Origin: Clostridiales bacterium
Lineage (GTDB): Bacteria; Bacillota; Clostridia; Christensenellales; UBA1242
Length of the DNA stretch: 64,000 nucleotides
Reading direction: 5' to 3'
Assembly (NCBI GenBank): GCA_015055605.1
Contig: SVHV01000002.1
Location: 216,049-280,048 of the forward strand
The notes under the pieces are model-generated. The model ran no database searches. It was not told the origin of the DNA and saw only the letters and a list, made by a program, of their open reading frames with translations. Each line of letters opens with the position of its first letter. The stretch's first letter is position 1. The position numbers and the translations under genes are program-made. This document shows, one piece after another, positions 50,219 to 61,335 of the stretch.

Positions 50219-50851
50219 ATGCCTAAATTAGATGATATTATGAATGTGGTGCAAAAACTGGCAAGTATTGAAGGTGTGGGAGAACACTTATGCTTTTTTG
50301 GTGGCTCTGTGCCTTATATGTTACATGGTATAGATTCTAATAGAGAACATTCAGATATTGATGTTTTAGTTGGAGAGAGTTACATGTCGGCCATTAGAGA
50401 ATGGGCTCAAGACGAGCAGAATGGTTGTCATTATAATTCTGACTTAGACTCTTTAAATTTAGGATTAAATGACGATTATGGTTTCAAGGTATATATTGAT
50501 GGCGTATATGTAGAGTTTGAGCCGTCAGTTGCCCAGAATGGTGTTTTTGTCCGAAAAAGTTTTAGTCCTAATAGGGGGCTTGCTGGTAGGGAAGAGATAC
50601 CTTTTGAGAATATAGAAGATATAATGACCAGTGTTAATATTGGTGGAGCACAAACATTCTTTCAGAGTGTAGAGATGATTAAGGCAGGTAAAGAGCAATA
50701 CAGGAGAGAAAAGGACTTGCAAGATATAGCGTTTATTGAAAGTCAAGGTTACGATACTGAGAGGTACGCTAGAGTAAAACAAGCCTTAGAGTCTAAAAAA
50801 GAGATAATAGGTAGTTATGCTGAACTGCAAACTTCAACTCAAGATATGTAA
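50219..50851 (+). CDS. Pol-beta-superfamily nucleotidyltransferase, Lnu(A)/ANT(2'')-like
   Basis: FFGGSVPYMLHGIDSNREHSDIDVLV closely parallels the GG...G...REHxDID active-site stretch I recall from Lnu(A)-type enzymes. Confidence 0.5.
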   Translation: MPKLDDIMNVVQKLASIEGVGEHLCFFGGSVPYMLHGIDSNREHSDIDVLVGESYMSAIREWAQDEQNGCHYNSDLDSLNLGLNDDYGFKVYIDGVYVEFEPSVAQNGVFVRKSFSPNRGLAGREEIPFENIEDIMTSVNIGGAQTFFQSVEMIKAGKEQYRREKDLQDIAFIESQGYDTERYARVKQALESKKEIIGSYAELQTSTQDM

Positions 50852-50886
50852 AAAAGAACAACTGATTTAGTTGTTCTTTTTTTTTT
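50852..50886. terminator. Bidirectional terminator between convergent genes
   Basis: AGAACAACT-5nt-AGTTGTTCT flanked by A5 and T10. Confidence 0.8.
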
Positions 50887-50888
50887 GC

Positions 50889-52148
50889 TTAGTTATTGTC
50901 GTGCATTATTTTAGATACTTCTTTGTGAGATAGTAGTTCTTTTTTCATTAGCGACTTTGCGACTTTGTCGAGTAGATTCATATTATTAGATAATAATTCT
51001 TTGCTTCTTTGATAATATTTGTCTAGTTCGTGACCGATTTGTTTAGCAATATACTCAGGAATGGCCTCTCTTCTCTCTGAATTGTGGTAATTACTAAAGC
51101 CATACTCACAATACTCAGTCACTAGTCTTTTTGCTATTCTATGAGCTCTGTCGATATCTGAGCCAGCACCGATATCTACTTTGCCGTACTTAAGTTCAAT
51201 TGCTGCCCTTCCTGCGAGTAGGGTAATAATTCTATTCTCCATATATTTCTTATCTACCCAGTAGTCGTCACACTCGTAGTAAGCAGTGAATCCTCCTATA
51301 TTACCCATGTGATTAGCGATAGTTACTAGAGATACACTATGTGGCTGTAATAGTTCTGCTACAACGGCGTGTCCTGCCTCGTGATAAGCAATGACTTCGA
51401 TTTGCTTTTCAGTTCTGCCATAGATATTAGTTGGAGCACCGAAAGCAGTCTTTACATAGGCTTTCATGATGTCGTCCATCTCGATTTGGCTCTTGTTTGC
51501 ATAACCTGCAACAACTCCAGCCTTATTGATAAGACTCTCTAATTCTGCACAAGAGTAACCATTGAGGAGTTTGGATATCTCGTCTATGTCTAAAGTTGCT
51601 ACATATTTCTTTTGGCTTAGGTAATACTCAATTATTTTCTTTGCGTCTTCGCCTTGAGGGTTTTGTACTTGAATCTTTTCGTCAAATCTACCCTCTCTAA
51701 GTAATGAGTCTGGTAGTAGGTACTTAGCGTTAACAGTGGCGATTACTAATACATTTTTATTTTTCACCTCGTCCATACAGGCTTGTACTGTTACATACTC
51801 TTCTGTATTAGGTCTAGTGTAGTCCTCGTTTGCAAATTTGTCTAGGTCGTCTAGTAAAACTATTGAAGGAGCATTCTTTACTGCTTCGTCAAAAGTTTCT
51901 TTTATATGATTGATAAATTCTCCGTTTGGTTTGTTTTTTCTGCATATAAATCCGGGTCTGCCACTAGCCTCGATTAGGCAGTTTGCCATTAAACTCTTGC
52001 CCACACCTGGGTCGCCATGAAACATAATGCCCTTAGGTAGTCTTGCTCCTAGTGCATCGTATTTGTCTGGATGTTGCATAATGTCTGCAAACTTCCTAAG
52101 TTCAGTTTTTATTCCTTCGTATCCTATGATTTTGTCTAAGCAATCCAT
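50889..52148 (-). CDS. Soluble FtsH-like AAA+ ATPase / M41 zinc metalloprotease lacking transmembrane and periplasmic regions
   Basis: Walker A GDPGVGKS, Walker B VLLDDLD (D in place of the usual E), SRH LLREGRFDEKIQV, zinc site HEAGHAV and GAGSDIDRAHRIA; the protein begins directly at the AAA module. Confidence 0.8.
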   Translation of the reverse strand: MDCLDKIIGYEGIKTELRKFADIMQHPDKYDALGARLPKGIMFHGDPGVGKSLMANCLIEASGRPGFICRKNKPNGEFINHIKETFDEAVKNAPSIVLLDDLDKFANEDYTRPNTEEYVTVQACMDEVKNKNVLVIATVNAKYLLPDSLLREGRFDEKIQVQNPQGEDAKKIIEYYLSQKKYVATLDIDEISKLLNGYSCAELESLINKAGVVAGYANKSQIEMDDIMKAYVKTAFGAPTNIYGRTEKQIEVIAYHEAGHAVVAELLQPHSVSLVTIANHMGNIGGFTAYYECDDYWVDKKYMENRIITLLAGRAAIELKYGKVDIGAGSDIDRAHRIAKRLVTEYCEYGFSNYHNSERREAIPEYIAKQIGHELDKYYQRSKELLSNNMNLLDKVAKSLMKKELLSHKEVSKIMHDNN

Positions 52149-52200
52149 ATAGTGTCTCCTTTAGTGAAAATTTTTATTGTACTTATTATAAGGTATTGTA

Positions 52201-52217
52201 TGTACCAAAATTTGTAC
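52201..52217. promoter_or_regulatory. Island palindrome copy a: TGTACCAAAATTTGTAC
   Basis: Read directly; between the phosphatase stop and the FtsH-like start. Confidence 0.6.
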
Positions 52218-52224
52218 TTCGTGT

Positions 52225-52905
52225 TTATTTTGTGTAAAATTCTTTCATGTCTTCTTTTCTTAAAATGCCTAACATTCTCGTATAGCTAACACCTGTATCT
52301 AGTCTGATTCTGGAGTAGGAGGAGAAGTTGTTGCGATTGTGATTTCGCTTAAGTGTTTTTATAAACTTGCCAGTGTTGTTGGTATATACACAGGGTGTGT
52401 GTCCTAATAAGATAGGTTTGTCTAGGCTAATGCCTTTGGTCTGAATGAAGTTCCTGTCGTATATCAAATAATTTGTATTTTGTTGTTCTAGAGGTAATAC
52501 TTTATTGTTAACAACTTCTAGTCCTGCATGTACACAGATAAAGTCCTCGGTTTCTATATAGTATGGTAAATTAGATAAATAAGAAATTTCTTTTGCTGTG
52601 ATTTCTTCGTTGTTTGATGGGAAGTAAGTATTTATTTCTCTTATAATTTCCTCGTCTTCTAGTTGTGAGGGGGTTAGTGCTATTTCTCTAACATATTGTA
52701 AGAAGGTGGCTTCATGATTGCCTAGAATAGCAATCATATTTTTGTTCTCTATAATGAACTTTAGTAATTTAATAGAGTCTTTGCCTTTGTCTATGATGTC
52801 GCCGAGTATATATAGGGTGTCATTTTTATTGAAATTAATTTCTTTTAATAATTCAATAAATAGCTCATATTCGCCATGGATGTCGGATATAAAATATGTT
52901 GCCAT
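52225..52905 (-). CDS. PPP-family metallophosphoesterase (PrpA/lambda-phosphatase/ApaH-like)
   Basis: SDIHGE, LGDIIDKGKDS, GNHE, HAG and GHTP motifs in canonical order. Confidence 0.8.
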   Translation of the reverse strand: MATYFISDIHGEYELFIELLKEINFNKNDTLYILGDIIDKGKDSIKLLKFIIENKNMIAILGNHEATFLQYVREIALTPSQLEDEEIIREINTYFPSNNEEITAKEISYLSNLPYYIETEDFICVHAGLEVVNNKVLPLEQQNTNYLIYDRNFIQTKGISLDKPILLGHTPCVYTNNTGKFIKTLKRNHNRNNFSSYSRIRLDTGVSYTRMLGILRKEDMKEFYTK

Positions 52906-52949
52906 GTTATTCTCCTTATTTTGAATCGGCTTTATTGTATATTAATCAA

Positions 52950-52967
52950 TGTACAAAATTTGGTACA
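52950..52967. promoter_or_regulatory. Island palindrome copy b: TGTACAAAATTTGGTACA in the divergent control region
   Basis: Read directly; lies in the 106-bp gap between divergent genes 52905(-) and 53012(+). Confidence 0.65.
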
Positions 52968-53011
52968 ATGGTTTATTTATAATATGAATAATATGTTTTC
53001 TAGGAGGAAGT

Positions 53012-53467
53012 ATGGGCGTAGTTATTAATGATTTAGCAGATTTGAAAAATTTTATCAAGTTAAAACACAGTAAAAAAAAGATTGAAATGAAATTTGATGA
53101 TGTGGTGTTTAATTGTGTATTGCCACACAAAAGGCATTTTAATTATTTTTGCGAGCAGGATATACAAGATTATGATGTTAGTATAATTGCAAAGAGTGTT
53201 ACCTTTAATTATCCTGCAGAGATAGATAATCTTCATGCTAGTCAAGTCGTGGCGAATGATTCGCTAATTTGCGAATTGATAAATGTGATAGGAGATGTGA
53301 GAGGGGCATATATAGCAACCAACTCTTTTATTGGCATTGATATAACAGCGGGTACTTTTGTTGTTAAGAATCTTGTTTGTCGGCATATTAAAGTCAAACT
53401 ATTAGTTCTTAATAATGAAGATTATCCATATCTAAAAGCAGATGCTATTAATAATATAGGGGTGTAA
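53012..53467 (+). CDS. Hypothetical protein P1 (151 aa), paralog of P2
   Basis: RBS AGGAGG; N-terminus INDLADLKNFIK parallels P2 INKIEDLKPFIK; alternating hydrophobic pattern suggests a beta-rich repeat. Confidence 0.55.
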   Translation: MGVVINDLADLKNFIKLKHSKKKIEMKFDDVVFNCVLPHKRHFNYFCEQDIQDYDVSIIAKSVTFNYPAEIDNLHASQVVANDSLICELINVIGDVRGAYIATNSFIGIDITAGTFVVKNLVCRHIKVKLLVLNNEDYPYLKADAINNIGV

Positions 53468-53468
53468 T

Positions 53469-54059
53469 ATGATTGAGATTAATAAGATTGAAGACTTGAA
53501 ACCATTTATTAAGTATGTGGACAAAAAATACACTAATGGAATATATCCTGCTATTAATTTTGAATTTAAAATACATGGTGAATTGCAAGATGTTGAGATT
53601 AAATGTGACCTACAACTGATTGAGGAAAATATGAATATTTTTTATGGTGAACTTGATGATGTGTTGTCGCTAGTAGATATAGATGAGGGGTATTGTGTAA
53701 ACTTTTTTGCTAAAAATGTTTATGCGAAAAAAATATTCGATTGTGAACATCTGAAGTGCGAAAATTTTTATATTGAGAAAGAGTCAAAAGTAGATTTTTT
53801 GGTTGTGGCTGATACTATTAAGGGTAGGATATTAAAGGCTCAAGATATATTTTGTGATAATTTAGATATAGACATTGTTGATTGTAGTTTTTTAAATGCT
53901 CTTAATGTAAAAGCAAAAGTTTATAAGGGTAAAGGTGCAGTCTTTACAAATGTTGAATATCACAACCCAGACTTTCCAAAAGAATTGGTTGAGAGTTGGG
54001 GTAGTAATGAATCTAAGCCGTATGGTATTGTGTATCAACATGATAGGCTATTGTTTTAA
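53469..54059 (+). CDS. Hypothetical protein P2 (196 aa), paralog of P1
   Basis: ATG 1 nt after the P1 stop (TAATATG); shared N-terminal motif and repetitive A..V.A..I pattern. Confidence 0.55.
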   Translation: MIEINKIEDLKPFIKYVDKKYTNGIYPAINFEFKIHGELQDVEIKCDLQLIEENMNIFYGELDDVLSLVDIDEGYCVNFFAKNVYAKKIFDCEHLKCENFYIEKESKVDFLVVADTIKGRILKAQDIFCDNLDIDIVDCSFLNALNVKAKVYKGKGAVFTNVEYHNPDFPKELVESWGSNESKPYGIVYQHDRLLF

Positions 54060-54075
54060 AAATGTATTGTAACAA

Positions 54076-54093
54076 TGTACCAAATATTGGACA
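54076..54093. promoter_or_regulatory. Island palindrome copy c: TGTACCAAATATTGGACA upstream of the DUF2779 gene
   Basis: Read directly; 38 nt upstream of an extended -10 TGTTATAAT (54131-54139). Confidence 0.6.
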
Positions 54094-54130
54094 TAGTACA
54101 ATAAAATTGCTTTCTTGATGGTGGGAATTG

Positions 54131-54139
54131 TGTTATAAT
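54131..54139 (+). promoter_or_regulatory. Extended -10 promoter element TGtTATAAT
   Basis: Read directly; 24 nt upstream of ATG 54163 (RBS AGAGAGG). Confidence 0.5.
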
Positions 54140-54162
54140 GGTTGTATGTAAGAGAGGTGCGT

Positions 54163-55659
54163 ATGCATTTTAGCAAATCGAAATATTGTGGGTTTTATCA
54201 GTGTCCAAAGATTACATGGCTAAAGAAAAACAAGCCAGAAGAGTTTGTTCCTGACGAGGCGGCACTAGGTCGTATGGCTAGTGGTAATGAACTAGGCGAC
54301 CTTGCTATGGGGATTTTTGGAGATTTTGTAGAAACAACAACCTATACTGATGATAAATTAGATATTCCTCAGATGATAGAAAAAACTAAAGAGTATATGG
54401 CTAAAGGTGAGGCTGTTATATGTGAGGCGTCTTTTGAATATGATGGCTTGTATTGTGCAGTAGATATACTTAAGAAAGAGCCTGGTGGTTATAGTATTTA
54501 TGAGGTAAAGAGTTCTACTCATGAGCATAATTTTGCATACATTGTAGATGTTTCGTACCAGAAATATGTGCTAGAAAAGTGTGGAGTAAATATTGTGTCG
54601 GTCAATCTAGTGACAGTTAATAACGATTATGTCTTTGATGGCACACTTAAACTAAATGAGCTTTTCAAAATCACTAATGTAGATCAACAAGTTGCTGACG
54701 AAATTGATAAAGTAGAGCCTAATCTAATTGATGCAGAAAAGATACTTGAGAGAGAAGACGAACCTAATATGGATATAAGTGTTAAGTGTCATACTCCTTA
54801 TGTTTGTGGTTTCTGGAAATACTGTACAAAGCATATTCCAGAGGTGTCAGTATTTAATCTATATAGAACAGACTTTCAGAAGAAATTGAACTATTATTAT
54901 AATGGCATTATTACTATGGAAGATTTGGCTAATTGTGGCGAGTATTTGGGTGATAAACAAAATATGCAGATACTACACGCTACCAGTGATTTGCCTGACC
55001 ATATTGATGCAGAGGGTATAAAAAAGTTCTTAGGTAAACTATCTTATCCTCTATACTTTTTAGACTTTGAAACCATGCAATTACCAATACCTCAGTTTGT
55101 TGGAACTAAACCATATCAGCAGATACCTTTTCAATATTCTCTGCATTATATAGAGTCTATGGGTGGAGAACTTAAGCATAAAGAGTTCCTTGCTGAATCG
55201 GGCGAAGACCCTAGAAGGGCAATTGCTGAGAGTCTATGTAGAGATATTCCTCAGAATGTATGTGTTCTAGCATATAATAAAGGCTTTGAGAGTGGTAGAC
55301 TTAGTGAACTGGCTGAGACTTTTCCAGACCTAAAGGATCATTTATTGAATATTGCTATTAATATGAAAGACCTAATTGACCCTTTTAGAGATGGTTATGT
55401 GTACAATAGGAGAATGGGAGGTTCGTTCTCAATTAAGAGTGTGTTACCTGCGTTATTTCCTAATGCACCAGAATTGGACTATCACAACCTTGATGGTGTA
55501 CATAATGGAGGAGAGGCTATGAGTATCTTCCCTAAAATCAAAGATATGTCACCAGAGGATAGAGAGAGGGCTAGGAATAGCCTGCTTAAATACTGCGAAC
55601 TAGATACTTTTGCAATGGTGAAAATATTTGAGTATCTTGTAAATGCAGTAAAGGAGTAA
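54163..55659 (+). CDS. DUF2779-type protein: Cas4-like PD-(D/E)XK nuclease with 4Fe-4S cysteines plus C-terminal DEDD/RNase-H-like module
   Basis: N-terminus FSKSKYCGFYQCPKITWL, VDIL..YEVKSS nuclease core, C-x7-C-x5-C (CHTPYVCGFWKYC), FLDFET exonuclease-like motif; start moved to ATG 54163. Confidence 0.7.
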   Translation: MHFSKSKYCGFYQCPKITWLKKNKPEEFVPDEAALGRMASGNELGDLAMGIFGDFVETTTYTDDKLDIPQMIEKTKEYMAKGEAVICEASFEYDGLYCAVDILKKEPGGYSIYEVKSSTHEHNFAYIVDVSYQKYVLEKCGVNIVSVNLVTVNNDYVFDGTLKLNELFKITNVDQQVADEIDKVEPNLIDAEKILEREDEPNMDISVKCHTPYVCGFWKYCTKHIPEVSVFNLYRTDFQKKLNYYYNGIITMEDLANCGEYLGDKQNMQILHATSDLPDHIDAEGIKKFLGKLSYPLYFLDFETMQLPIPQFVGTKPYQQIPFQYSLHYIESMGGELKHKEFLAESGEDPRRAIAESLCRDIPQNVCVLAYNKGFESGRLSELAETFPDLKDHLLNIAINMKDLIDPFRDGYVYNRRMGGSFSIKSVLPALFPNAPELDYHNLDGVHNGGEAMSIFPKIKDMSPEDRERARNSLLKYCELDTFAMVKIFEYLVNAVKE

Positions 55660-55663
55660 ATTT

Positions 55664-56659
55664 ATGCCATTAGACAGTAATAAGAAGTTATATATAATGT
55701 ATATCTTAAAGGTATTAAGAGAAGAAAGTGACGAAAAGCATCCTCTTAGACAATTAGATATAATTAACAAAGTTAAGTCTAGATATAATGTTGATAATAT
55801 CGACAGAAAGACCATTGCTAGAACAATAGATAGCTTAATAGACATGGGTGTCGATATTGTTAAATTAGAAGGTGGAGGCTGTTACCTTGCAGATAGGGAA
55901 CTTGAGCCTAGCGAGATTACTTTTTTAATTGATGCTATATTCTCTAGTCGTGCTTTGAATTGTAAACAAGCCAAAGATTTGTCTGACAAACTCTCTAAAT
56001 TGCTTAGTGTACATCAAAGAAACAGATTTAAGTATGTGCATAAGTCAGATGAGGTTGTGAGGACCGACAATAAACAACTGTTTCTAAATATTGATATGAT
56101 AAGCGAGGCTATAGAAAAGGGTAAACAAATCTCTTTTAATTACACTAGACATTATTTTGATAAAAATAAAAATGCCGAGCAAGAAGAAAAAGAGTATATA
56201 ATCAATCCATACTTTATGGTTAATAATCAAGGAAAGTATTACCTTGTGTGTAATTATGATTATTATAATGATGTGGCTAATTATAAAATTGAGCAAATCA
56301 GAAATGTGAAAATATTAGACACAGATATTAAGCCTATTACCAAACTGAAAGATTGTGAAAATGGTTTAGATAAGGCTAAATTTATCAATGAAAATATTTA
56401 TATGTTTAACAATCAGACTGTATCGGCAGTGATTAAAGTTGGTGACGAGTATGCGGTTAATTATATTGTAGACTGGTTTGGCAAGGACGCTAGACTTTAT
56501 AGTAAAGATGGCGACATACTAGCATCTGTGAGAGTCAATGAACAAGCACTAATATACTGGTGTCTACAATATGGCGAAAGTGTTGAACTTGTATCTCCGG
56601 AGACAACTAGAGAAAAAATTAAAGATATTGTGAAGATATTATATAAAAAATACCAGTAA
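55664..56659 (+). CDS. wHTH-WYL-WCX transcriptional regulator (BrxR/CapW-like architecture)
   Basis: N-terminal winged HTH (YILKVLREESDEKHPLRQLDIINKV), WYL core GKYYLVCNY...NYKIEQIRNVKIL, C-terminal extension; starts 4 nt after the DUF2779 stop. Confidence 0.75.
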   Translation: MPLDSNKKLYIMYILKVLREESDEKHPLRQLDIINKVKSRYNVDNIDRKTIARTIDSLIDMGVDIVKLEGGGCYLADRELEPSEITFLIDAIFSSRALNCKQAKDLSDKLSKLLSVHQRNRFKYVHKSDEVVRTDNKQLFLNIDMISEAIEKGKQISFNYTRHYFDKNKNAEQEEKEYIINPYFMVNNQGKYYLVCNYDYYNDVANYKIEQIRNVKILDTDIKPITKLKDCENGLDKAKFINENIYMFNNQTVSAVIKVGDEYAVNYIVDWFGKDARLYSKDGDILASVRVNEQALIYWCLQYGESVELVSPETTREKIKDIVKILYKKYQ

Positions 56660-56668
56660 GTAAAACGG

Positions 56669-56686
56669 TGTACTAAATTTGGTACA
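56669..56686. promoter_or_regulatory. Island palindrome copy d: TGTACTAAATTTGGTACA (may double as the WYL terminator hairpin)
   Basis: Read directly; followed by TGTTTTTG. Confidence 0.55.
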
Positions 56687-56837
56687 CTGTTTTTGTTATG
56701 ATTAGATTATAGATGGTTCTTGTGGACGATAAATAGAGTGATTTTAATATATTGTTTAGTGGGTTTGATAGTATGTAATTTTGTTTATATACTTACATTA
56801 AAAATTAGATGTACTATATCAAACCAAAGGGGGTTAT

Positions 56838-57341
56838 ATGAAATTTGAGGTTAGGCTATGTAGCGTGCTAGATAGTGGTACAGATATAATAGTTAATGCA
56901 GCTAATAATTATTTGTCTAGAGGCGGCGGTGTTTGTGGTGCGATTTTTGAGAGGGCAGGAGCAGAACTGCTCGAGGCTGAATGTAGAGTGTGGGGGTATG
57001 TTAAAACTGGCTCAGTTGCTACTACTAATGGATTTCAATCTGGTGCTAAATATATTATTCATGCTGTTGGTCCAAACTTTTATATAGACCATCAGGATTG
57101 GCAAGAGAAACTAGAGAGTGTGTATAAAAAATCGCTACTCGTGGCTGACGACTTGGGTGTAAATAGTATTGCTTTTCCTTGTATATCTACTGGAATATTT
57201 GGCTGTCCTATAGAAGAGTCTGCTAAGATTGCTGTGAGGGTTGTTAGAGAGTTTCAGCCCAAAAACCTAAAGAATTGTGTACTTTGTTGTTTTACAGACG
57301 GAGAATATTCTGTCTATAATGCATTACTGTATAGCAAGTAA
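56838..57341 (+). CDS. Stand-alone macro domain protein (MacroD/YmdB-like ADP-ribose hydrolase)
   Basis: IVNAANNYLSRGGGVCGAIFERAG, IIHAVGP, IAFPCISTGIFG motifs. Confidence 0.85.
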   Translation: MKFEVRLCSVLDSGTDIIVNAANNYLSRGGGVCGAIFERAGAELLEAECRVWGYVKTGSVATTNGFQSGAKYIIHAVGPNFYIDHQDWQEKLESVYKKSLLVADDLGVNSIAFPCISTGIFGCPIEESAKIAVRVVREFQPKNLKNCVLCCFTDGEYSVYNALLYSK

Positions 57342-57470: not shown

Positions 57471-57498
57471 TTGACAAATGAAAAAATTATGATATAAT
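57471..57498 (+). promoter_or_regulatory. Near-consensus promoter TTGACA-16-TGaTATAAT
   Basis: TTGACA 57471-57476, TG 57490-57491, TATAAT 57493-57498. Confidence 0.7.
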
Positions 57499-57528
57499 GG
57501 GGGCAAGATTATTATGGGGGTTGGGGTT

Positions 57529-60116: not shown

Positions 60117-60142
60117 GTTGTGCAATTAATTTTTATTTGTGG

Positions 60143-60220
60143 ACAAAAGTACACGAAAATATTGTTTGGTTTATTGTGGTTGAGTGGTTTTAGTGTACAA
60201 AAAGCAATACAAAAGTACAC
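60143..60220. repeat. GTAC-cored repeats: ACAAAAGTACAC x2 (60143, 60209) and inverted GTGTAC/GTACAC (60193/60215)
   Basis: Read directly, immediately upstream of TTGACA at 60229. Confidence 0.6.
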
Positions 60221-60282
60221 AAATGCTATTGACATTAGTGTGTTATTGTGTTAGTATAAGTTTGATAACGGAGGTAATTATA

Positions 60283-61335
60283 ATGTCAAGAATAAAAACA
60301 CAAGAAGAGGTTGCTAAGTTTATAAAAGAAAAAATGAATGATAAGGGAATTAAAAAATCTATTGACCTTGCTAGAGCTGTTTCAATATGTAAGTATGGTC
60401 ATGAGATGGGGAGTAGACCAGATAATATTGATGCTATCAAGTATAGTGTGAGCAAGTGGCTACAATGGGAGAACAAAGATAAATCTAGATTTCCTGGCAC
60501 TGAGTATATATTTTATCTATCACAAGTTTTAGGGGTTACGATGGAAGAATTATTGATGGCAGGAGATGTTTGCTCAAAGTATGACAATAGACCATTTTCG
60601 TTATATGCAATAGCAAAGAGTAATAGTCCGGAGTTGCTAGAATCTGTAAGAGATAATGATAGCATAGACGGAAATTCTATTCTATCTAATTATGATGAGT
60701 TTGATAAAACACTACTGCATTATATTTTAGAGTTTGATAGTAGAGAATTGTTGCAATATATGATAGACAATGGCTATGTAAGATTTGAAAATACAGGTTT
60801 TACAATATATGTGACAATGTGGGGAATGTATTTTAATACAGAGTTATATTCAAAAATTGTGAAGATGGCTATCAAGTATGATGATATTAATATTTTTAGA
60901 AGTGCGATTAATAGAGTGTTGCCCTTGTATAAAGATATGTTAGATGAAGAGGATATGCTTAAGATTTTAGATACTACTGAAATATTTAAGTATCTCACTA
61001 CTCCTTATGTTGCTACTGCTGAGGAGTGGAGAATGGTTAATCCTGGTATTACATATATAGATAATGAATCTACTGAAGCATTAAAAGGGGTGCAGGTTTT
61101 ACCTATCTTATTTAATAACTTGTTGGCAGTTGCAAAAGATAGTCAAAATGATAAACTAGACTTACTTAGGGATATTGCGAAGAAACACAATAAAACTACA
61201 ATGGACTTGATAAATAGATTTTACTCTAGAAAAGAATTTGAAATACTTGAAGACGGACGACTTACTTCGGGTAGGTATGGTTGGCTTACAGTTTTAGGTA
61301 TGGAAGATGGGAAAGTTGTAGGAGAGGGTGCTTGA
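60283..61335 (+). CDS. XRE-like HTH protein with helical-repeat (possibly ankyrin-like) C-domain
   Basis: ATG 60283 behind RBS GGAGG; HTH stretch IDLARAVSI...KYSVSKWLQWEN; KTLLHYILEFDSRELLQYMIDNGY resembles an ANK repeat (weak). Confidence 0.55.
   Translation: MSRIKTQEEVAKFIKEKMNDKGIKKSIDLARAVSICKYGHEMGSRPDNIDAIKYSVSKWLQWENKDKSRFPGTEYIFYLSQVLGVTMEELLMAGDVCSKYDNRPFSLYAIAKSNSPELLESVRDNDSIDGNSILSNYDEFDKTLLHYILEFDSRELLQYMIDNGYVRFENTGFTIYVTMWGMYFNTELYSKIVKMAIKYDDINIFRSAINRVLPLYKDMLDEEDMLKILDTTEIFKYLTTPYVATAEEWRMVNPGITYIDNESTEALKGVQVLPILFNNLLAVAKDSQNDKLDLLRDIAKKHNKTTMDLINRFYSRKEFEILEDGRLTSGRYGWLTVLGMEDGKVVGEGA

Follow-up and report, generated by a model that had tools for sequence, protein, structure and literature searches.

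An 18-bp palindrome set 10 nt from the -10 hexamer as the probable site of a DriD-like WYL-domain regulator in a Clostridiales bacterium

A stretch of 64,000 nucleotides (nt) from contig SVHV01000002.1 of a Clostridiales bacterium, hereafter called the window, carries four near-identical 18-bp palindromes (sites a to d) around a gene for a WYL-domain transcription factor. The question raised by this locus is which protein, if any, reads these palindromes, and to what effect. In an original prediction, made from the sequence letters alone, they were taken for operators of a dimeric helix-turn-helix (HTH) repressor, with the adjacent WYL protein or an HTH protein encoded at 60283 as candidates. 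Here we report that the palindromes are a real cis-regulatory element, and we argue that they are probably the sites of the adjacent WYL protein, a homodimer resembling DriD of Caulobacter crescentus, which most likely activates the surrounding genes from 10 nt upstream of their -10 hexamers. The four sites are the following.

Site a, 52201-52218: TGTACCAAAATTTGTACT, between the stop of a phosphoesterase (Metallophos) gene and the start of an FtsH-like protease gene; acts toward the minus strand
Site b, 52950-52967: TGTACAAAATTTGGTACA, between divergent starts
Site c, 54076-54093: TGTACCAAATATTGGACA, atypical
Site d, 56669-56686: TGTACTAAATTTGGTACA

The coordinates of all four 18-mers were confirmed in the sequence, site a having been written as a 17-mer in the original prediction. 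When the window was searched with the ideal palindrome at up to 3 mismatches, exactly 4 matches (sites a to d) were obtained against 0.04 expected from dinucleotide shuffling, and 0 of 100 shuffles reached four; the claims that chance is an implausible source and that the motif occurs nowhere else in the 64 kb both held at this threshold, with no copy in the remaining ~59 kb. A search for the half-sites only (TGTAC-N8-GTACA, at most 1 mismatch) gave 6 matches in the window versus 1.9 expected, the two extra ones, at 37669 and 60194, having spacers that were G+C-rich or non-palindromic. Each of the four sites also lay, as had been predicted, in an intergenic gap, wholly outside open reading frames (ORFs) of at least 100 amino acids (aa); such DNA makes up 11.1% of the window, which gives p = 1.5e-4 for four of four under random placement.

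The same design recurs beside homologues of the WYL protein. We examined 80 loci encoding WYL homologues of 36-65% identity, taken from one-genome-per-species GTDB contigs of Christensenellales, 'Onthoplasma', 'Caccovivens', uncultured Clostridia, Bacilli and Erysipelotrichaceae and amounting to 1.27 Mb. The exact window consensus was rare in them (5 matches at up to 3 mismatches), and the first impression of a non-conserved motif was overturned by the finding that most relatives use TGTCC/GGACA and not TGTAC/GTACA, the DNA upstream of their WYL genes carrying palindromes of the same design built on these half-sites. In an unbiased count of every 5-mer dyad with spacers of 2-13 over the 1.27 Mb, TGTCC-N8-GGACA ranked first among all 5-mer dyads, with 38 copies observed and 0.33 expected. 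Perfect sites of the degenerate form TGTMC-N8-GKACA numbered 54, versus 2.6 in shuffles, and 47 of the 80 loci had at least one; mixed dyads were among the sites found, TGTCC being paired with GTACA in L001, L002, L003, L025, L039 and L051, and TGTAC with GGACA in L015 and L061. Judged by their sequence, the window sites are the local form (TGTAC-N8-GTACA) of this conserved dyad. A second enriched dyad, TATTG-N7-CAATA (58 versus 5.2 expected, 11-fold), was an artefact, encoding a conserved YWCLQYG peptide inside the WYL gene; its copies were located in the WYL genes of L001-L057 (e.g. L001:10889).

The sites of the 80 loci clustered within 2.5 kb upstream of the WYL gene. Their density fell from 7.5 per 10 kb over the 200 nt preceding the WYL start to 2.25 per 10 kb between -2.5 and -1 kb and to 0.03-0.11 per 10 kb more than 5 kb from WYL genes, and in 11 loci a motif promoter directly drove the WYL gene. 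Homologues of the window neighbours (FtsH-like protease, Metallophos, Macro and DUF2779 proteins) recurred beside the WYL gene in shuffled order. In two closer relatives (L299 and L302, WYL proteins 76-80% identical), sites a and b were found in orthologous positions, the palindrome and the TATAAT hexamer being invariant and the 10 nt between them diverged. The dyad recurs beside WYL homologues of 36-82% identity in many species, in agreement with that part of the original prediction in which the palindromes were operators of a dimeric HTH protein.

The cargo around the WYL gene differed even among close relatives (L299, L301 and L302, 76-80% identical in the WYL protein). The FtsH-like, Metallophos and WYL genes were accompanied in L302 by HSP70-like and UvrD-like genes, and L299 lacked the Metallophos and DUF2779 genes and had a UvrD-RQC helicase, a Macro protein and an ADP-ribosylglycohydrolase. 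The regulated genes around the WYL gene show an island-like turnover.

The dyads form one part of composite promoters. We tabulated -10-like hexamers at offsets 0-29 on both sides of every dyad site, and found 72 cases at offset 10 and at most 10 at every other offset. As an independent control, viral contigs of IMG/VR were scanned with TGTCCNNWWWWNNGGACA-Nx-TATAAT, which matched 61 loci at N10 and 8 each at N9 and N11. The logo of 89 non-identical promoters read aTGTCC-nn-WWWW-nn-GGACAt-N9-TAtaaT: 1) the central positions 8-11 of the dyad were never G or C, 2) nothing like TTGACA was present at the place expected for a -35 hexamer (logo positions 6-11, the dyad centre), and 3) about half of the promoters had an extended -10 (TGn), formed by T26/G27. 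An ORF behind a motif promoter typically started 35-50 nt past the dyad. In the window, -10 elements at this spacing were the following.

-10 hexamer TATAAT, 52185..52190, minus strand: exactly 10 nt from site a; promoter of the FtsH-like gene
-10 hexamer TACAAT, 52934..52939, minus strand: 10 nt from site b; promoter of the Metallophos gene
-10 hexamer TATAAT, 52978..52983, plus strand: 10 nt from site b; promoter of the unk151-unk196(-DUF2779-WYL) transcription unit
Extended -10 TGtTATGAT, 56694..56702, plus strand: hexamer starting 10 nt from site d; points at the Macro gene

The FtsH-like ORF starts 52 nt beyond site a. A sigma-70 scan revealed no canonical -35/-10 promoter at sites a, b or d, and the promoters at site a (minus) and site b (both strands) had neither a -35 nor TGn. 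As -10 hexamers lie at exactly 10 nt on both strands of site b, this one dyad appears to serve two divergent promoters, an arrangement also seen in L019, L032, L161 and L194. An alternative sigma factor recognizing GGACA-N10-TATAAT was also considered; the equal conservation of the two half-sites and the use of several dyads in both directions led us to reject it. Ahead of the Macro gene, the motif promoter at site d is followed by a second, canonical promoter (TTGATA-17-TATACT, 56765-56793), and a recA locus (L134) likewise had a canonical second promoter downstream of its motif promoter; such pairs are in keeping with the addition of an inducible, activator-dependent promoter to a basal one.

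Sites c and d are special cases. Site c has no -10 hexamer at 10 nt; TACAAT is found at 3 or 4 nt and TAAAAT at 8 nt. Downstream of it lies one further element.

Extended -10 TGTTATAAT, 54131..54139, plus strand: read from the sequence, 40 nt downstream of site c; presumed basal promoter of DUF2779-WYL

Site d is contained in a predicted hairpin.

Hairpin followed by a T-run, 56662..56693, plus strand: contains site d; 14 pairs in a terminator scan

This hairpin had an RNA fold of -17.2 kcal/mol (z = -6.35), and a G+C hairpin with a U-run at the end of a transcription unit was found at site d alone and not at a, b or c. With a strong hairpin followed by a T-run, site d is likely to be the intrinsic terminator of the DUF2779-WYL operon. 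The original prediction had placed it in a terminator region, which stands but is incomplete: site d itself is the terminator-like hairpin and, in addition, has the TGnTATGAT element at 10 nt. In other WYL loci, too, dyads behind a co-directional gene were extended by complementary flanks and followed by T-rich spacers.

Could all four palindromes then be structural RNA or DNA elements, either terminator hairpins or an intergenic repeat of the repetitive extragenic palindromic (REP) type, with no protein partner? The hairpin and U-run of site d, together with the palindromic and intergenic nature of every site, are in line with such a reading. However, folding is weak at sites a, b and c (-3.1 to -9.4 kcal/mol), where no U-run follows, and a and b lie upstream of genes; the loop would be of 8 nt with an A/T core; the half-site sequence and not the pairing is conserved, as the mixed TGTCC/GTACA sites reveal; and a fixed spacing to a -10 hexamer has no terminator logic. 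Nor are the elements dispersed, as the rest of the 64 kb contained none and the outer flanks of the 80 loci hardly any. The concern in the original prediction that the motif might prove to be a generic REP-like element was not borne out in the window and the 80 loci, the window copies being confined to the cluster and linked to promoters. We hold a purely structural role to be extremely improbable.

If a protein reads the dyad, the adjacent WYL protein is the best candidate, as originally suggested, the dyad often standing directly upstream of the WYL gene itself. The WYL domain was identified by Pfam (PF13280, 5.6e-11, 42.7 bits versus a cut-off of 21.8), as was a C-terminal WCX dimerization domain (PF25583, 4.9e-6, 27.2 bits versus a cut-off of 23.9), which was modelled with a predicted local distance difference test (pLDDT) score of ~90; no HTH match was obtained for this protein with Pfam. 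An AlphaFold (AF2) model built on 64 homologues (mean pLDDT 80.6) has a winged HTH at residues 7-75, a three-helix bundle at 82-127, the WYL domain at 137-221 and the WCX domain at 252-330, the predicted winged HTH consisting of helices 7-21, 30-41 and 48-60 and a beta wing at 65-75. Thus the WYL and WCX parts of a wHTH-WYL-WCX (wHTH, winged HTH) regulator were recognized by Pfam, and the wHTH part and three-helix bundle by the model and by Foldseek, in which the full-length model aligned to four proteins, with an identity of only 10-16%.

DriD (8tp8, full length), activator: E 1.5e-14
PafBC, activator: E 6e-12
CapW, repressor: E 6e-8
BrxR, repressor: E 2e-7

The other candidate of the original prediction, the protein of the ORF at 60184/60283, did not hold up: it had no HTH or other match in Pfam or NCBIfam, had no homologue in the 80 WYL loci and never co-occurred with the motif there. 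Several GTACA/GGACA half-site-like words were seen at 60141-60222 (GTGGACAAAAGTACAC; TGTACAAAAAGCAATACAAAAGTACAC), ahead of the gene that starts at 60283 and its canonical promoter (TTGACA at 60231, 17 nt, TAGTAT); this region contained no complete dyad and no -10 at the 10-nt spacing.

That the WYL protein binds the palindrome is, from the comparison of sequences, well supported. WYL proteins without Arg48, a position at the start of the predicted recognition helix, had sites in 0 of 7 loci, versus 47 of 73 for the others (Fisher p = 0.0013; the seven are not phylogenetically independent). How such binding would act on transcription is suggested by DriD, whose target promoters in C. crescentus (didA, bapE, CCNA_03891, dnaG and recJ) have a clear -10 and no -35, with a pseudo-palindrome overlapping the would-be -35 at an identical distance to the -10 in all five (PMC13004042). 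The three-helix bundles of DriD were seen by cryo-electron microscopy to contact RNA polymerase, and an 'optimised -35' construct had TTGACA put in the central spacer of the DriD site (PMC13004042), which corresponds to the place where a -35 would fall in the window 18-mer. The constant distance to the -10 over the -35 position, as in DriD promoters, was found at site a (minus), site b (plus and minus) and site d (plus), not at site c, and no recognizable -35 hexamer was present. Since the window architecture is that of DriD with a different recognition sequence, activation is favoured, and we infer by this analogy that the protein activates and does not repress; the word 'repressor' in the original prediction is probably wrong, considering that the dyad stands 10 nt from the -10, covers the -35 position of promoters with no -35 hexamer, and is adjacent to the gene of a protein with a DriD/PafBC-like fold.

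In the mechanism that we propose, the WYL homodimer would bind the palindrome with each half-site (TGTAC or TGTCC) read by one winged-helix domain, and the dyad, at about -40 to -23, would take the place of the missing -35 at site a, at site b in both directions and at site d. The bound dimer would recruit RNA polymerase to these -35-less promoters, activating transcription as DriD does. The signal would be single-stranded DNA (ssDNA) on the WYL domain, i.e. DNA damage or phage attack; ssDNA is probably the ligand, as it is that of DriD and PafBC and is reported for CapW. The local regulon would include, leftwards, the FtsH-like protease and the ApaH-like phosphoesterase and, rightwards, two uncharacterized proteins (151 and 196 aa), the DUF2779 nuclease and the WYL gene itself, plus the Macro gene. 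Site c may tune the basal promoter of the DUF2779-WYL operon, and site d would double as the terminator hairpin of the WYL operon.

Several observations, including the first ones named under each of the two rivals below, weigh against this account. The protein shares only ~15% identity with DriD, and when the WYL alignment was used as a profile against PDB sequences, nothing matched at E of 0.01 or below. The residues of the recognition helix showed no clean covariation with the TGTAC or TGTCC variant; a loose tendency of Gly52 to go with TGTCC and of Ser/Ala to go with TGTAC had several exceptions and was not used as evidence. Site c stands outside the N10 rule. As to the ligand, another Firmicute WYL factor is reported to sense c-di-GMP (PMC11880434). 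Finally, binding by the WYL protein is deduced from co-occurrence, and two rival readings have to be weighed accordingly.

One is that the dyad is read by an unlinked, global damage-responsive factor, the WYL gene and its neighbours being merely among its targets. We scanned metagenome contigs for TGTCCNNWWWWNNGGACA-N10-TATAAT, which gave at least 120 loci, and 110 of the 120 matches listed had no WYL gene in the stretch examined (mean 6.7 kb); the motif also preceded recA, dinB-like and addB genes far from any WYL gene, and the link between the WYL protein and the DNA comes from comparison. Against this, a WYL homologue was present in 10 of the 120 matches listed, always within ~1 kb of the motif, which is far above chance for a one-per-genome gene. 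WYL was the only DNA-binding family common to all motif-bearing loci of the WYL-first set, the other recurrent neighbours being enzymes; the sole other recurrent HTH among the motif-first matches listed was an XRE protein, confined to one mobile-element type; and the motif was missing from WYL clades with an altered recognition helix. In Firmicutes, LexA binds GAAC-N4-GTTC, an operator whose distance to the promoter varies, and regulates its own gene. LexA was rejected as the unlinked factor, the dyad differing from this box in sequence and spacing and being fixed in position; no LexA-type (Peptidase_S24) Pfam match was found in ~20 representative downstream proteins, and no LexA was named in the descriptions of the largest ORF clusters among the motif-first matches listed. 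We consider an unlinked reader improbable.

The other rival keeps the WYL protein as the reader and makes it a repressor like CapW or BrxR, which at -40 to -23 would block RNA polymerase at extended -10 promoters and be released by ssDNA. CapW and BrxR, both significant Foldseek matches, are reported to be wHTH-WYL-WCX repressors of adjacent operons, CapW being released by ssDNA (PMC11662680, PMC9122588), and the TGn of about half of the promoters, together with several -10 hexamers that equal the consensus TATAAT, could allow firing without a -35. Yet a repressor needs promoter overlap and not one fixed spacing, whereas N10 exceeds N9 or N11 by about 8 to 1 across unrelated genes; the promoters of site a (minus) and site b (plus and minus), having neither -35 nor TGn, should be weak alone; the fold is nearer to those of the activators and, in the model, comprises a three-helix bundle, the part of DriD that touches RNA polymerase; and the downstream canonical promoters at recA and Macro would render upstream repression pointless. 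The strict spacing across unrelated genes and the second canonical promoter downstream are hard to explain for a repressor, and we regard repression as unlikely, although less so than an unlinked reader. Activation by the WYL homodimer therefore remains the reading that we adopt.

Which genes would such an activator control? The gene map of the region, drawn from Pfam, NCBIfam and PADLOC, is as follows.

50889..52148, minus strand: soluble FtsH-like AAA+/M41 metalloprotease, 419 aa; Pfam AAA, AAA_lid_3 and Peptidase_M41; N-terminal membrane part absent
52225..52905, minus strand: ApaH/PrpE-type calcineurin-like phosphoesterase, 226 aa; Pfam Metallophos
53012..53467, plus strand: unk151, 151-aa protein; no significant family match (Pfam, PADLOC, NCBIfam)
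53469..54059, plus strand: unk196, 196-aa protein; no family match (Pfam, NCBIfam)
54163..55659, plus strand: DUF2779 protein with an N-terminal Cas4/PD-(D/E)XK-like region, 498 aa; Pfam DUF2779, 4e-46
55664..56659, plus strand: WYL-domain transcription factor, 331 aa; Pfam WYL and WCX; proposed palindrome binder
56838..57341, plus strand: Macro-domain protein (ADP-ribose binding or hydrolase type), 167 aa; Pfam Macro, 3.8e-35; NCBIfam

The FtsH-like protein covers only positions 163-598 of the NCBIfam FtsH_fam profile, and the matches of the phosphoesterase to the NCBIfam ApaH-like models fall under the curated cut-offs. A homologue of unk196, 30% identical, was found in WYL locus L004. The DUF2779 protein had a weak match to Pfam Cas_Cas4 and a PADLOC Cas4 match at 2.4e-7, and in L019 and L044 its gene stood behind a motif promoter. 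A protein annotated from a Clostridiales metagenome-assembled genome is identical to the WYL protein. PADLOC detected no known defence system in the window, only generic IetA-like AAA, Cas4 and WYL matches. The rest of the window consists of ordinary chromosomal genes, and no tRNA was found in it. A 15-pair terminator-like hairpin was located at 50850-50882, between two genes that converge, with ends at 50851 and 50889. A perfect sigma-70 promoter (TTGACA-16-TATAAT with TG; 57471-57498, plus strand) stands ahead of the 403-aa gene at 57514, so that the genes after Macro seem to be a unit of their own. Far from the cluster, a SAM riboswitch (RF00162, 55.5 bits) was identified at 27335-27422 on the minus strand, upstream of ORFs 26975-27298 and 25881-26975.

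In the WYL-first loci, the genes found behind the motif encoded 1) the FtsH-like protease, the commonest (20 loci), 2) a SpoVK-like AAA protein of 666 aa (14 loci), 3) the WYL protein itself (11 loci) and 4) DnaB_C-only proteins (7 loci), besides DUF2779 proteins, FtsK/SpoIIIE-like ATPases, small FtsK-gamma winged-helix proteins and an RNase_T exonuclease. In L004-L015, L018, L051, L054 and L002 (~2.1 kb upstream of the WYL gene), this 666-aa protein, which has a C-terminal SpoVK/CbbX-like AAA module, is encoded behind the motif and directly ahead of WYL; in 14 species it stands in for the FtsH-like AAA+/M41 protease. A classical AAA+ protein thus accompanies the WYL gene in nearly every case, much as pafBC lies next to the genes of the Pup-proteasome.

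Among the motif-first matches listed, the genes behind the motif encoded RecA, a Y-family polymerase (Pol IV), AddB, a UvrD-PD-(D/E)XK helicase-nuclease, Vsr, a DnaE fragment, SNF2 and DnaB-like helicases, type I HsdM, Fic and a PAPS-reductase-like protein. This mixture of repair, defence and mobile-element switch genes matches the content of known ssDNA-sensing WYL regulators, and a global regulon reaching the recA-type sites may be supposed. An ImmA/IrrE-type M78 peptidase gene was found behind the motif, next to an XRE repressor gene, in at least 12 metagenome loci, and the same peptidase in 8 viral loci.

Peptidase_M78, metagenome loci: L086, L096, L098, L100, L102, L107, L119, L125, L131, L141, L173, L175
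Peptidase_M78, viral loci: L215, L231, L237, L243, L248, L249, L255, L260

Several of these loci also carried integrase and Y-family polymerase (Pol IV) genes. The arrangement suggests that the induction of M78-carrying integrative elements or prophages may be wired to the same signal. A search of viral contigs revealed no WYL homologue, so that the regulator itself is not carried by phages, although these contigs do contain promoters of this type.

Some motif-bearing contigs were peculiar. In L115 (632-5676; metagenome contig Ga0326513_10011065), eight copies of TGTCC-N8-GGACA-N10-TATAAT were counted in 6.4 kb, most of them ~48 nt ahead of a tiny ORF (49-146 aa) with a strong ribosome-binding site; L167 had four composite promoters in 2.2 kb, and L198 was similar to L115. 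A region of the L115 type looks like the early region of a phage or mobile element running entirely on this promoter class. In the viral loci L201, L203, L207, L216, L220, L228, L234, L236, L247, L257 and L261, a second inverted repeat, GAACAAACAAATGTTCG (GAAC-N8-GTTC), was noticed ~25 nt downstream of the -10 of the motif promoter; no ORF was called in its vicinity, and it might serve another factor as operator.

How does this system compare with known ones? DriD, the best structural match, is likewise a homodimer-type wHTH-3HB-WYL-WCX protein (3HB, three-helix bundle) of ~330 aa, with a pseudo-palindrome whose central spacer tolerates A/T, placed over the -35 position at a constant distance to the -10, and a regulon of several promoters that includes DNA-metabolism genes. 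It differs in that its site is ATACGAC-N7-GTCGTAT (21 bp) and not TGTMC-N8-GKACA (18 bp), whereas the host here is a Firmicute with a TATAAT-type -10, the core partner gene encodes an AAA+ protease and, as known from sequence, individual dyads seem to be shared by two divergent promoters and some to be terminators as well. PafBC, the second-best structural match, is a WYL activator of Actinobacteria which is activated by ssDNA and governs a LexA-independent damage regulon that includes recA (PMC6789036). Its motif, too, lies at a fixed distance from the -10 and replaces the -35 (RecA-NDp promoter), and the pafBC genes go together with those of the Pup-proteasome, an AAA+ protease system (PMC6789036); PafBC is, however, a heterodimer acting on a non-palindromic motif at -26 and only with RNA polymerase, unlike the symmetric dyad and single WYL gene found here.

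In Moraxellaceae, the WYL activator DdaA has a palindrome, CGWCA-N5-TGWCG, before recA, repair and defence genes (CRISPR-Cas and restriction-modification; PMC12392091). The gene mixture resembles that of the motif-first matches listed here (RecA, Pol IV, AddB, Vsr, HsdM and mobile-element genes), whereas motif, spacing and phylum differ, and replacement of LexA by the WYL family of the window is a proposal only. CapW and BrxR, of CBASS and BREX systems, share the wHTH-WYL-WCX domains, palindromic operators by their own genes and a location in variable islands, and CapW is reported to sense ssDNA (PMC11662680); they repress a single adjacent operon and are structurally more distant (E ~1e-7 versus 1e-14), and a multi-promoter arrangement with fixed spacing was not reported for them in the literature searched. 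In a literature search of incomplete coverage, no paper was found on this motif or on a Firmicute WYL damage regulon. The finding is not a new principle, being a known architecture with a new recognition sequence and host group; its unusual features are the dyads used both ways, the dyads doubling as terminators and the constant AAA+ partner.

A wider proposal, which we put forward tentatively and consider somewhat less likely true than false, would make this WYL subfamily the master activator by which a wide range of uncultured Clostridia and Bacilli of the gut (Christensenellales, 'Onthoplasma', RF39-like Bacilli and Erysipelotrichaceae) respond to DNA damage independently of LexA, including the wiring of prophages and integrative and conjugative elements (ICEs). 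If so, TGTCC-N8-GGACA-N10-TATAAT would switch on recA, Pol IV, addAB, uvrD-like genes, the soluble AAA+ protease and restriction systems, as well as the ImmA-type anti-repressor proteases of prophages and integrative elements, and induction of mobile elements would be wired to a WYL/ssDNA signal instead of RecA-LexA cleavage.

Regulators of the WYL type that sense ssDNA are emerging as a second route, beside LexA, to the DNA-damage and phage response, so far worked out in Actinobacteria (PafBC), Caulobacter (DriD) and Moraxellaceae (DdaA). The window and its relatives provide a testable case in uncultured gut Firmicutes, with an 18-bp operator, an N10 rule, a candidate regulator and a conserved AAA+ partner, and the candidate regulon extends to recA and to genes for prophage and ICE induction. 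For the window, an otherwise anonymous gene cluster would be explained as one co-regulated unit. If confirmed, damage-inducible genes and inducible mobile elements in gut metagenomes would become predictable from sequence alone, and a compact inducible promoter would be at hand for Firmicute engineering.

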